A stretch of 64,000 nt of DNA from positions 32,001 to 96,000 of the IMG/VR virus record IMGVR_UViG_2510065010_000001; one strand, given 5' to 3'. Position numbers and translations under genes: made by a program. Below are positions 57,922 through 64,000 of this stretch, piece after piece. How positions within the stretch are numbered: the first letter of the stretch is position 1; each line of letters starts with the position of its first letter. A model generated the notes under the pieces. It did not search any database, had not been told where the DNA came from, and saw only the letters and a program-made list of their open reading frames with translations. The stretch comes from a virus (taxonomy: Duplodnaviria > Caudoviricetes).

Positions 57922-60900
57922 ATGAACGAAGATTTAGATATTGAACTAGAGAAGGAGGAGGAAAGTTCTGTACGACCGACAGATGAAAGTGCTATTGAAA
58001 CGGAATCGCCTGCCAGTCGTTTTGTAAATGACTTTGAGGATACTCTTAAAACCGGAGATCCCTTTAGACTTGTTCAACGTGTAGCTCGGACAAGCACAGA
58101 AGTTTTAGCAGATGCTAAACCAGACTCGCGCTCTGGGTTGTTCCCCCTTTCTCAGTCTGCTAACCAAGCAATGCAGTCGATGGGAGAGCGTGTTGTTCAA
58201 TCTGCTCTTTCCACAGAGCAACCATCAAGACTTCGGATTTCAGGTACACAAACTTCTCGTCTGCAAGGTTTTACATCTAGAGCACTTGCATCTGATTACC
58301 AATCTTTATTGGAACGTCCAGGTGAGTTTAAGGCTACTTTTTTCCAGTTTCAACAAGAGTCCGTTGTTAGCTCATTATTAAAAAGAACAGACCCAACAAC
58401 TTTAATAACACAGAGAGCAGCCTTTACCAGTCCTCGCGCAGATCAAACTACTGCTGAAATTTTACTCGGCAACGAACTCACCTATGCTGCTGGGGCTGCA
58501 TTAAGATTGCCTACGCACAACGTGTTAGGTGTTCAATCTTATGCATCTTTTCACCCTAAAGTAGGCTATGTCGGGGACTCCCAAAAAGGATTCACTGCAT
58601 TCCTGGGAACTCAAAATATTACTCCGGCGTTACAGGGTAACAACTCTCTTGAAACGTTGATGACTTTCACGACACCAGGAACCAGAGCAGTTACTACTAG
58701 CCCTACATCTTTTGTAGAACAGAGTATTGCTCAAGAAATTTATCAGCTGACAAACTCAATCTCCGACTTGGCTAACCAGGAAGGAGTTTACCGTCCAGGA
58801 CAACTTAGACGTTATCTCACACAAAACCAAGTGCAAAGAAATTTTTTGTATGTGGAGCAAGAGATTCATCAACGTATTACCCAAGCTCTGACTGCTGCTG
58901 CATTTAACGCTGCTTCGAAAAAAGACAAAGTTGTAATCAGCATGGGTGAGATTTCACTCTTATTAAAACAGTCTAAAAACTCCACGTCTCTGCTTCAGGC
59001 GATCGCTCAACTCGCTAGAGAGAACAGGCTAAACATTATTACGGACAGTAAACGGGTTAATAACTTCTTCGATGAGTTACGGTCAAACCCGGTACTATCA
59101 CATAACCGTGCTCTAGTAGACTTGTTGCTTCAGACAGGTTCACTTAAAGTTGCAACTACTGGTTACCAGCATGACAAAACTGTTGCCATTTTTGGAGAGA
59201 GTAATCAGCTTCGCTTCTTTAACGTTGGTTCTGCAAACTTTTCTGCCGATTCTATGACGGCAGTTAAAGACCTTGGAGCCAATCGCGAATACTTTGATAG
59301 TGCTCTGGCTATTCTCAAACAGCAACCGAATTCATTTGACAACAACGCTCCACTAAACCTAGATGTAAACTTAATGCTAGGTAGTGGACCGTATGCAGAC
59401 AATCTCAGAGCAGCCCCGGCTGCTGAAGCATATCTTAAGCATTTAGCTCCACAACTGTATAACCATTACTCAAACTTGTCTGCAGGTTGGTTGCAATCTA
59501 GAACTATTTATCACACAGGTTATTTAGCTGAACGGCGTGCTGATCCAACTAAAGTAGAACAACTTAGGCAAGGTCTTGAAGTACTGTCTCAAGAATTAGG
59601 TGGGTTACTAGAAGTAACTGGACGTTACTCGACTGACCAGGGTAAAGCTACCCAAGTCGGGTTAACAGTTAGAGTTAAAGCACTTGGCTCTTCTTCTGTA
59701 CAAACAACCCTTAAATTAAGCGTTGACAGGTATGGCAACGTTATTTTACCTGAGACAAATAAAGTTATTCCTGGGTCTGTATTTGTCAACAAAACTTCAC
59801 AAGTAAGACGAGTAGTCGGAAGAGATGTAGCACCTGGCGCGTCTGCTCAATTAACGGGGGTAGAAACTGCTGTTGGTCTGATCGGTACTATCAGTCGAGA
59901 ACTGAGTTATCAGGCAAAGTTTGGAATTGTGGACACTCTTTTTGAGAGGATGGGAACGACTCAGTTCCAAACGCTTAAATCTGCGAGTCGAACACTTCTG
60001 GCAAAAAGTATTCAGGCATCAAATGAGGTTTTCAAAGGAAACCCACAACTTAATTTAGTGAGTCTCCTTTCTGCCTTAAATACTGATGAACTTGATGCTC
60101 AATTTGGACCTACATTATTAAATGCTCAACAGTTTTTAGCTACAGGTGACTCATCTTTACAGCTAACTGACAAGGAAAAACAGCAACGTTTTAAGGCGCT
60201 TCAATCTGTATTCTCAGAGTTTTCAGAACCTAGTAACTGGTACTCAGATAACGTAGATGATGTAGCTGCAAGACGCTTACTCCAAACACTATCAACAGAC
60301 ACTAAAGGTTTATTAACAGACCTTAAACTAGCTTTGGTTCTTTCTACTGAAGAGGGTAGAAGACAGTATCAAGCTATTCAGAATACGCAAGCACGTCGTT
60401 TAGTCCAGGATCTTACTGCTCCATTTCTAGCAGCGCATGAGTTAGGTTACTCAGCTATGCAAGGGCAAGCACGTTTGCCTATTTATGCTGAATCTGAGAT
60501 TTATGACACAAGTACTGCTTACGGAAAGGTATTAAACTCAGGGTTTCTAAACCCAGCTTTAGTAAAACCAGGTACTAAAGTTGGACAACCTGGACAGTAC
60601 TTTCGTCCAGTTGGTGCAACTTCCCATGCTAAAAAGTTGTCACTACCTGGATTTGGTAATATCCGCCAACTTAATATTATCGACGCTGATATATCCACGG
60701 GTGCGGCAGTTACCTATGACATTAAGAGACTTTTCTCATCAACGTCTGGTTTAGCCAGGATAGAAAAAGAGCAATACATTCAGCAAATGCACCAGGTGTT
60801 TAATAACCTGGGAATTGAAGCTCCAGTCATAGAAACAGATGAAGTACAATATCTGTTGCCTTTCACAAAAGCTGAACAGATACCTCAACGTTTGAAAAAT

Positions 60901-63900: not shown

Positions 63901-64000
63901 TATACAGATGAGGCGTTGCGTTATCAGGTTGAGCTTCGACAAAAACTGCTTGAAACCAGTAAAGTCCGAGAGCAGTTGTTGAACCCAGGAGCTACTGTTT
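57922..64000 (+). CDS. Giant protein (>2020 aa, runs off window): tandem PLD domains + RNAP beta-like region; candidate virion RNA polymerase
   Basis: No in-frame stop in the segments translated, and absent from the ORF track as expected for an ORF lacking a stop; HPK..GTQN (~58552), HDK..GSANFS (~59170), MKRVAIV..GDS (~61147), GSRPTGAGLVKGPFS (~61792). Confidence 0.75.
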   Translation, partial: MNEDLDIELEKEEESSVRPTDESAIETESPASRFVNDFEDTLKTGDPFRLVQRVARTSTEVLADAKPDSRSGLFPLSQSANQAMQSMGERVVQSALSTEQPSRLRISGTQTSRLQGFTSRALASDYQSLLERPGEFKATFFQFQQESVVSSLLKRTDPTTLITQRAAFTSPRADQTTAEILLGNELTYAAGAALRLPTHNVLGVQSYASFHPKVGYVGDSQKGFTAFLGTQNITPALQGNNSLETLMTFTTPGTRAVTTSPTSFVEQSIAQEIYQLTNSISDLANQEGVYRPGQLRRYLTQNQVQRNFLYVEQEIHQRITQALTAAAFNAASKKDKVVISMGEISLLLKQSKNSTSLLQAIAQLARENRLNIITDSKRVNNFFDELRSNPVLSHNRALVDLLLQTGSLKVATTGYQHDKTVAIFGESNQLRFFNVGSANFSADSMTAVKDLGANREYFDSALAILKQQPNSFDNNAPLNLDVNLMLGSGPYADNLRAAPAAEAYLKHLAPQLYNHYSNLSAGWLQSRTIYHTGYLAERRADPTKVEQLRQGLEVLSQELGGLLEVTGRYSTDQGKATQVGLTVRVKALGSSSVQTTLKLSVDRYGNVILPETNKVIPGSVFVNKTSQVRRVVGRDVAPGASAQLTGVETAVGLIGTISRELSYQAKFGIVDTLFERMGTTQFQTLKSASRTLLAKSIQASNEVFKGNPQLNLVSLLSALNTDELDAQFGPTLLNAQQFLATGDSSLQLTDKEKQQRFKALQSVFSEFSEPSNWYSDNVDDVAARRLLQTLSTDTKGLLTDLKLALVLSTEEGRRQYQAIQNTQARRLVQDLTAPFLAAHELGYSAMQGQARLPIYAESEIYDTSTAYGKVLNSGFLNPALVKPGTKVGQPGQYFRPVGATSHAKKLSLPGFGNIRQLNIIDADISTGAAVTYDIKRLFSSTSGLARIEKEQYIQQMHQVFNNLGIEAPVIETDEVQYLLPFTKAEQIPQRLKNVVGSRPALDVNPELVRKLRSLQQVKLGASSLLAGRLREVLPQTQFEELAAKATQDFASVQEYFRSSELDPLNTQRGFIGPRSMKRVAIVGGVSLIGDSSYLNSGYELYAGDMQRMTVKVSSRQVTNQLQTQALLSKYLAPGTTIFSAPVTLADNESSSLLAALQQSLESTGQAVTVTTLQRALETYENGKFKNVLVKRDGSRYRLYYQEGLYSPTKDGYERIGSFDKDGLITVRGVGTQQDTLWGSRHQPITLKFQAFNKRHQAGISVITSAPSIQVSDSGTMIVSTDVLTVWEPGTGSRPTGAGLVKGPFSVIKPEIFKDIDKLVSQRTSLKPQALANESLYGLFGHGHFKGFNYETGLYLLSQQDTREAVAQLSGQQVAQSLSLLFLGDEQIRAALQTQLKSSGLDLAADAISHVKATDFAQLKNGKPSTALGRVALGLTSLSDLPTAAQDASIGSLASVKQTVLRALQNDSQAIQVLETQTRKLINTVINSPESAIQFSSGEVVLNESNLVARGAGLLAHLSFVGQQLFNPAITPGRSVNKLYERDLSDAQKYITDVAYRNVVDTVAATAGMSLPAPSPKNRQDIQRKLSLLQAMIQNDVVIEDIKDITVSRSLVPTGMKDEAAMEYQYLLGMSSSYLKAFTKVGGGSQASQELQSAFARLLGSFRVDLPSANAQLGYRLALPGEDSQAFFSTLAQDTQSLLLSYTELGEKLNLVQSSIEEVTTAKGSTALRRLQRFQRLATGMTADGTSQLEARAIAANKLFNLSYFSDQKPEDSKAAKLQVSHLRKTLSIQNTFAPGESALSITTQVVRRAYQSYQEDRFFRKQNGQIQTSFQSFVSEGSGGRVAQALEEKYGLITELAQDSFRIPGVPLTDDTAILDTRIAQRIQRINERSLNSIQNAYDTSIYKEFVQGALNLESKLQVQAANDRSNQVSRVLQEIQNTKQVILPQFTAEAITEGENVGRYRLKMLDPGEYDPTVGVMMGTDILRRAPLLFPQYTDEALRYQVELRQKLLETSKVREQLLNPGATV

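Follow-up and report, generated by a model that had tools for sequence, protein, structure and literature searches.

A giant gene of a cyanobacterial prophage encodes a phospholipase D-type region and a putative two-barrel polymerase core

The window analyzed here is a 64,000-nucleotide stretch of DNA from a virus of the Caudoviricetes (IMG/VR record IMGVR_UViG_2510065010_000001, positions 32,001 to 96,000), which corresponds to G000:C1:650804-714803 of a genome that consists of one contig of 5.53 Mb. An earlier note on this DNA, made from the sequence alone, had reported an unannotated giant open reading frame (ORF) without a stop codon at the end of the window and had proposed that its product joins phospholipase D (PLD) domains to a two-barrel RNA polymerase (RNAP), the second polymerase of the element. 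In the window, the frame (57922..63999, + strand) comprises 2,026 codons and is open up to the edge. The genome provided the remainder of the gene, which is covered in full by the locus designated L002. It consists of 3,311 codons and a stop, the latter located 3,857 bases beyond the window edge. Full translation revealed no in-frame stop, confirming that the giant ORF encodes an uninterrupted protein of 3,311 residues. This protein contains no cysteine, and glutamine accounts for 9% of its residues overall and for 10-13% in the C-terminal third.

Downstream from the giant gene, and on the same strand, are located genes for an endolysin, a Mu-like portal, a protease/scaffold, the major head protein, a tail protein, and the tail sheath. 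This gene order, which includes a sheath, indicates that the element is a contractile-tailed (myovirus-type) prophage and that the giant gene heads its virion operon. The host genome harbors eight photosystem reaction-centre genes (Photo_RC) scoring above the Pfam cut-off, indicating that the host is a cyanobacterium. The giant gene is sporadic among the relatives of the host, with a match in one of 40 other genomes.

A word-based search recovered ten relatives of 3,217 to 4,326 residues (100-24% identity). In their alignment, the invariant columns coincided with the proposed motifs and were not randomly distributed. In an exhaustive profile search performed with the trimmed catalytic region, 107 representative clusters reached E ≤ 1e-3, and 96 of them reached E ≤ 1e-10. 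Most of these clusters (89/107) have at least 3,000 residues. The region designated below as barrel B was found in 92 of 111 family sequences and the PLD region in 64 of 111 (E ≤ 1e-3). Among known phages, the only ones with a match were the Microcystis myoviruses Ma-LMM01 and MaMV (9 records). The Ma-LMM01 protein, gp080 (YP_851094, 3,562 residues), matched the family profile (E 2.9e-40) in four colinear pieces that span the protein, HxK head and hydrophobic tail included. Judged by sequence, the window's protein is a member of the gp080 family. The full-length protein also matched phrog_31006, to which no function is assigned (E 1.2e-15, residues 2253-2662). One family member, at 30% identity and with a DFDGD motif, is cut by the end of a 7.8-kb contig (L015) titled as a Halobacteria archaeon metagenome-assembled genome. 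The contig may come from a phage and have been mis-binned, or it may hint at a virus of archaea.

The earlier note had predicted that a DxDGD motif would be encoded past the window end, and had named RxP..DxDGD as the pattern to look for. A DFDGD motif was found at residues 2273-2277, 247 residues (738-752 bases) beyond the window end. The prediction was thus borne out; RxP was not present in its strict form. The family harbors instead R2212-x-G2214-x-P2216 (RRGGAP in the window's protein, residues 2211-2216), with a spacing of 4 from R to P, in contrast to 2 in RxP. Conservation was counted over all family members aligning at a given column. Each residue of the GDxDGD signature (G2272, D2273, D2275, G2276, and D2277) was present in 103 of 103 members, R2212 in 89 of 96, and P2216 in 86 of 97. 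Two strings that the earlier note had quoted as beta-like were also recovered, in the part of the gene located in the window. The first, MKRVAIVGGVSLIGDSSYL, occupies residues 1076-1094 and contains D1090, which is invariant in the family (80/80). The second, WEPGTGSRPTGAGLVKGPFSVIKPE, occupies residues 1285-1309 and holds R1293 (75/76) and K1301 (80/80). They had been likened to strings of E. coli beta.

According to a passage of PMC2919709, eight residues are invariant in all two-barrel RNAPs. They are D837, K979, and K987 of Rpb2 and R446, P448, D479, D481, and D483 of Rpb1 in Pol II, and D709, R738, K743, R962, P964, D1007, D1009, and D1011 in QDE-1. In the family, D1090, R1293, K1301, R2212, P2216, D2273, D2275, and D2277 follow each other in the order given in that passage, the equivalence being based on order and location. 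The spacing of 8 between R1293 and K1301 is that of Rpb2 K979 and K987. Farther downstream, R2627, D2628, and K2631, which belong to the GKTYN...RDALKxK block, are each present in 105 of 105 members. An additional block, EQIPQRLKN, located about 80 residues ahead of barrel B, is invariant from the prophage protein to Ma-LMM01 gp080 and matches no familiar motif.

For fold prediction, a homologue encoded by a viral contig (L013) was modelled instead of the window's protein. The two barrels, from G1069 to the first aspartate of DFDGD, extend over 1,204 residues in the window's protein (about 1,220 with the ends), for a span of 1,124 residues in L013. The AlphaFold2 model of L013 residues 1340-2535, based on an alignment of 30 sequences including the window's protein, had a mean predicted local distance difference test (pLDDT) score of 72.3 and a predicted template modelling (pTM) score of 0.61, with pLDDT values of about 70-90 for barrel B (model residues 14-250). 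Comparison of this model with the PDB by Foldseek led to the identification of second-largest subunits of cellular RNAPs in 49 of the 50 best rows (E 3e-3 to 3e-2). In a second look at the Foldseek candidates, all of the best 50 rows were RNAP largest subunits, aligned over a core of 85-91 residues at 2.1-2.7 Å. Barrel A (model residues 868-1152) superposed on residues 345-474 of beta' and on its relatives. In each of the best 50 rows, the alignment with the largest subunit stopped 10 residues past the DYDGD motif of the model. For QDE-1, the aligned range stopped at 1021, 10 residues past D1011. For E. coli beta', it ended at 474, 10 residues past the aspartate D464. The two barrels of the model together superposed on solved single-chain two-barrel RNAPs, the best matches being QDE-1 and RDR2 (205-210 residues, 3.4-3.8 Å).

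BLASTP comparison of the window's protein with the modelled fragment of L013 revealed three colinear segments (E 4e-43, 2e-17, and 1e-12) spanning barrel B, the strands ahead of barrel A, and the catalytic loop. Since these colinear segments cover both barrels, the fold assignment transfers to the window's protein by homology. In particular, the region 61100-62000, in which the earlier note had placed a double-psi beta-barrel (DPBB), is homologous (E 4e-43) to the first barrel of the model. Barrel B contains G1084, D1090, N1095, R1293, K1301, G1302, and P1303. The conserved GKTYN...RDALKxK block lies outside the L013 model and is helical, at low confidence, in a model of the corresponding fragment of the window's protein; it is a candidate for the bridge helix following the catalytic barrel. 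The protein displays three hallmarks of the two-barrel superfamily, namely two DPBBs (predicted by homology), a DxDGD loop closing the beta'-like barrel, and one acidic and two basic residues in the beta-like barrel. Together, the sequence comparisons and the model support the presence of a very diverged single-chain two-barrel nucleotide polymerase core. The earlier note had named an in-frame stop, the lack of DxDGD, and the lack of a DPBB as findings that would speak against a PLD domain fused to a two-barrel RNAP; none of the three was encountered. Scans of the in-window 2,026 residues gave a sub-threshold match to TipAS only in Pfam and no meaningful match in PHROGs, and comparison of residues 1930-2700 with the protein atlas gave scores of at most 0.77 and no named family.

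Sequence evidence supports the assignment of the N-terminus to the PLD superfamily of phosphodiesterases. The two HxK..G[ST]xN motifs with a non-canonical Asp spacing, described in the earlier note, were found at residues 211-232 and 417-439. The Pfam profile PLDc_2 matched repeat 2 with borderline scores of 27.4 bits (trimmed fragment) and 26.7 bits (residues 1-560) for a cut-off of 27, and matched two of eight family members scanned at E ≤ 0.01. A profile of the PLD region had only two matches in the PDB, BfiI (repeat 2) and R.NgoAVII (repeat 1), with weak E values (0.16/0.22). In the protein atlas, 24 of the 30 nearest named clusters carry PLDc_2, and the BFVD/UniProt name of gp080 is 'PLD phosphodiesterase domain-containing protein'. 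The two HxK..N half-sites would be expected to form a single active site. Because the PLD neighbors are of the nuclease type, nucleic acid is somewhat more likely than lipid to be the substrate. Family members P0054, P0056, P0060, P0063, P0066, P0068, P0072, and P0073 are full-size proteins devoid of the PLD head. In this subgroup, the barrel-B region begins at residue 530-720 approximately, in contrast to about 1000 in the other members. The existence of a full-size subgroup lacking the head indicates that the family carries the PLD domain as an accessory module.

Table 1. Features of the giant gene and of its immediate upstream region.
Feature	Position in the window	Residues and other coordinates	Strand	Basis or remark
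Small ORF, 78 codons	57676..57912		+	Stop 10 nucleotides ahead of the ATG of the giant gene; GTGAGCA at 57803
Giant PLD–polymerase gene (putative)	57922..64000 (codons 1-2026)	G000:C1:708725-718660 = L002 1-9936	+	ORF reading
PLD-superfamily region, two HKD-like repeats	58219..59601	Residues ~100-560	+	Pfam, PDB profile, atlas
HKD-like motif 1, HPK..GTQN	58552..58617	Residues 211-232	+	H211 58/59, K213 59/59, N232 59/59
HKD-like motif 2, HDK..GSAN	59170..59238	Residues 417-439	+	H417 65/65, K419 65/65, N439 62/65
Invariant block P980..K983..Q986..R990.K992.N993..R998 ('EQIPQRLKN')	60859..60918	Residues 980-999	+	Family alignments
Barrel B, predicted beta/Rpb2-like double-psi barrel with beta-rich insert	61126..61959	Residues ~1069-1346	+	L013 homology, Foldseek, conservation
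Inter-barrel connector, mostly helical (predicted)	61960..64000	Residues ~1347-2063 overall	+	L013 and window-fragment models, conserved columns
Barrel A, predicted beta'/Rpb1-like catalytic barrel		Residues ~2064-2288 = L002 6190-6864	+	L013 model superposition
RRGGAP motif		Residues 2211-2216 = L002 6631-6648	+	Genome translation
DFDGD motif		Residues 2273-2277 = L002 6817-6831	+	Genome translation; within LGDFDGDAY 2271-2279
Conserved GKTYN...RDALKxK block		Residues 2511-2633 = L002 7531-7899	+	Family conservation; candidate bridge helix
Two hydrophobic segments		Residues 3074-3092 and 3190-3208 = L002 9220-9624	+	Sequence composition

As the earlier note had stated, the giant gene and a PAAR gene (56636-56935, - strand; phrog_281, E 4e-20) are divergently oriented. 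Further beyond the PAAR gene are found a gene for a Dda-like helicase and then the ORF pair 46941-51452. The ORF located at 46941-48074 (377 residues) carries the motif GDCDGDN, which is consistent with the pair being a candidate second, split polymerase. The ORF at 48123-51452 had no tblastn match among 50,697 phage records; in five records containing members of the giant family, one strong and one weak homologue of this ORF were found. In a 156-kb viral contig, a second giant frame of 4,195 residues is weakly similar to ORF 48123-51452 (E 9e-8/5e-5; match at G042:C1:81522-83009, - strand) and is distinct from the PLD-polymerase giant of the same contig. The small ORF preceding the giant gene is possibly co-transcribed with it, or merely a leader.

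Additional features were detected around these genes. In the locus downstream from the giant gene (L003), the exact 12-mer KTGAGCACTCAA is present at positions 649-660 and 1191-1202, in each case about 60 nucleotides ahead of an ORF start (708 and 1257), and the remaining 28 loci compared do not contain it. An HNH endonuclease gene (L003 17188-17841, - strand; phrog_374, E 3e-75) is located in the tail module, just after the sheath-associated genes. An ORF of 408 residues (40687-41913, - strand), whose PHROG match is of the transposase type (E 1.6e-9), is present within the prophage region.

The best explanation that we can offer, and one that we hold to be probable, is that the giant protein combines a PLD head with a two-barrel polymerase, is packaged into the virion, and is ejected to transcribe the first phage genes. 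Packaging and ejection are inferred from the position of the gene and by analogy. The protein would be made late, together with the virion proteins, packaged, and ejected into the cell alongside the DNA. The polymerase core would then transcribe the first phage genes, and these would probably comprise the operon of the candidate second, split polymerase (46941-51452). A section of PMC10770324 provides a precedent, in P23-45, for the coexistence of a virion RNAP with a non-virion one in the same phage. At the active site, binding of the catalytic Mg2+ would fall to the three aspartates, and the R/K pair would keep the RNA 3' end and the incoming nucleoside triphosphate in place. The hydrophobic C-terminus would anchor the protein at the entry pore, and the PLD head would cut phosphodiester bonds, more likely in host nucleic acid than in membrane lipid. 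A virion proteome of Ma-LMM01-type phages was not found in the literature, and mass spectrometry is still needed according to an excerpt of PMC9927357. A more specific scenario, which we put forward tentatively, is that of an ejected pilot enzyme. Three steps would follow each other at the cell envelope. The hydrophobic C-terminus would enter the pore, the central clamp-poor polymerase would transcribe the leading end of the genome, thereby helping to draw in the DNA and activating the second polymerase, and the PLD head would degrade nucleic acid (of the host or competing) or nearby lipid.

Several observations weigh against a virion-carried PLD–polymerase. In the Foldseek comparison with the PDB, the L013 model had no match at E ≤ 0.001. 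The model is also that of a homologue at 26-32% identity rather than of the window's own protein. For residues 1901-2700 of the latter, modelled with 10 sequences, the mean pLDDT was 61.5, with values below 50 in the conserved catalytic stretches. Comparison of the whole protein with PDB sequences by phmmer gave only a chance match to VP4. When the catalytic region and barrel B were searched as profiles against the same sequences, the outcome was coiled-coil noise or no match at all. Alignment of both profiles with P23-45 gp96 (residues 1-1200) and gp64 by hhalign was limited to a 7-residue motif, with a probability below 1%. Within the family, RxP is altered to RxGxP, and just 23 of 59 members keep the HKD Asp. 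Both QDE-1 and RDR2, which match best in structure, are RNA-dependent, so that the template preferred by the core may be DNA or RNA. Finally, the late-gene 12-mer KTGAGCACTCAA is absent upstream of the giant gene, where only the partial sequence GTGAGCA is present. Concerning the sequence searches, a section of PMC10770324 indicates that such methods usually fail to link two-barrel families.

Similarity to QDE-1 and RDR2 raises the possibility that the two-barrel core is genuine but intracellular, the protein acting as an RNA-dependent RNAP, a primase-like enzyme, or a PolD-like DNA polymerase in replication or counter-defence. We regard this as unlikely. The gp66 protein of crAss-like phages is also closest to QDE-1 and is nevertheless a DNA-dependent virion RNAP, as described in a section of PMC10770324. 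The giant gene sits in the structural/late operon, and the size of the protein, its lack of cysteine, and its hydrophobic tail are better suited to an ejected protein than to a replication enzyme. Furthermore, the element already has a separate candidate for an intracellular polymerase, in the ORF carrying GDCDGDN. The alteration of RxP, together with a sequence that has diverged past the reach of profile methods, would rather be in favor of polymerase motifs persisting as relics in a structural or ejection protein, with non-catalytic barrels and the PLD head as the sole enzyme. This appears highly improbable, since GDxDGD (103/103), D1090 (80/80), K1301 (80/80), and R2627, D2628, and K2631 (105/105) are invariant in clusters that are otherwise 15-30% identical. 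Invariance of catalytic-type residues across at least 100 diverged clusters is the mark that selection leaves on an active site.

The precedent of P23-45 gp96 also led us to consider that the protein might be the tail tape measure with an embedded polymerase, the helical bulk setting the length of the tail and the hydrophobic C-terminus forming the membrane channel. The position of the gene makes this very unlikely, as it precedes the endolysin, portal, and head genes and is not located between the tail tube/chaperone and baseplate genes. The element also encodes a contractile-tail sheath, a separate tail-length protein is mentioned for a relative in an excerpt of the MaMV-DH01 paper, and the Pfam and PHROG scans gave no match to a peptidase or to a tape measure protein. 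In addition, the polymerase is N-terminal in gp96 and central in the giant protein. Tape-measure identity was thus rejected on gene position; the prophage's own tape measure gene was not located.

Two-barrel virion polymerases embedded in giant phage proteins are already a known kind. They have been reported for few systems, the crAss-like phages and P23-45, and were found through the DxDGD clue. In the literature searched, we found neither a description of the present family, its PLD fusion, and its long inter-barrel connector nor a paper naming the protein a polymerase, although the supplementary tables of PMC10770324 (23 RNAP families and a survey of phages with two RNAPs) may list the family. 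A relative in the Ma-LMM01 group is stated to have no phage RNA polymerase in an excerpt of PMC9927357, and transcription of Ma-LMM01 was read as relying on the host RNAP only, all promoters being of the host type, in an excerpt of PMC5780444. If our interpretation is correct, at least 107 clusters would be added to the known systems, centred on cyanophages and cyanobacterial prophages and including the bloom-controlling phage Ma-LMM01. A PLD phosphodiesterase joined to a polymerase, with an insertion of about 700 residues between the barrels, would also widen the known architecture of two-barrel enzymes. Under the more tentative pilot-enzyme scenario, Ma-LMM01-type cyanophages and their prophage relatives would run a self-contained cascade of two polymerases similar to that of P23-45, contrary to the dependence on the host RNAP that is in print, and the PLD–polymerase fusion would represent a virion polymerase module of a new type. 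Our interpretation provides a testable hypothesis for the start of infection by Ma-LMM01-type phages.

Among known proteins, Ma-LMM01 gp080 displays the same order of elements as the giant protein, with an HxK..N head, QxPQRLKN, LGDFDGD, GKTYN..RDAxKxK, and a hydrophobic C-terminus. A segment of gp080 from BFVD gave a structural match (E 1.3e-16). The two proteins differ by their origin, gp080 being encoded by a lytic myovirus and the window's copy by a chromosomal prophage, and their identity is low, tblastn detecting only about 160 residues at 29%. In its sequence record, gp080 is annotated as 'hypothetical'. Another 'hypothetical' protein of Ma-LMM01, gp064 (1,673 residues; L029 7812-12833, - strand; record 43811-48832), adjoins the early-gene cluster gp054-gp063 as well as a 42-bp repeat array and contains a single DxDxD motif, in the polymerase form GDADGDQ at residue 1348, which may be compared with GDCDGDN in ORF 46941-48074. 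Based on this motif, gp064 could be the second, non-virion polymerase of Ma-LMM01; phmmer comparison of gp064 with the window ORF pair 46941-51452 gave no match.

Structurally, the core of the giant protein is closest to QDE-1 and RDR2 and to the polymerases of the Thermus phages P74-26 and P23-45 (P74-26 gp62, PDB 8F5M). In sequence, no similarity beyond the 7-residue motif was detected with the two P23-45 enzymes, gp96, which is a virion RNAP fused to the tape measure (PDB 8H2M/8H2N), and gp64, which is the non-virion RNAP. The N-terminal polymerase of gp96 is compact, with an active fragment comprising residues 327-1124 according to a section of PMC10770324. In contrast, about 700 residues separate the barrels of the giant protein and the PLD domain lies ahead of them. 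In contrast to gp96, the giant protein is encoded outside the tape-measure position, and no metallopeptidase domain was detected in Pfam scans.

[quoted passage not shown] According to excerpts of 10.1101/2020.03.07.982082 and PMC10770324, gp66 is large and packaged in the virion, carries a DFDxD-type motif, and has a two-barrel core resembling QDE-1. The preprint, in its excerpted text, makes no mention of phospholipase, Microcystis, or prophage. Both gp66 and YonO were absent from the best 50 rows of each fold search, which is no evidence against a relationship. QDE-1 (Neurospora) and RDR2 (plant) share with the family the constellation of eight catalytic residues. They differ from it as eukaryotic RNA-silencing enzymes, RNA-dependent and devoid of a PLD head and of a hydrophobic tail, with no detectable sequence similarity.

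At the other end of the protein, the PLD head shares HxK..GSxN half-sites with BfiI (2C1L), R.NgoAVII (4RCT), and Nuc, and differs from them in that the Asp of the motif is not conserved in the giant family. The virion RNAP of coliphage N4, gp50, is a protein of about 3,500 residues that is ejected into the cell and transcribes the early genes. It is a T7-like single-subunit polymerase with an unrelated fold. N4 gp50 offers a working analogy for the giant protein, as an enzyme of giant size that is carried in the virion and has its polymerase module in the middle of the chain.

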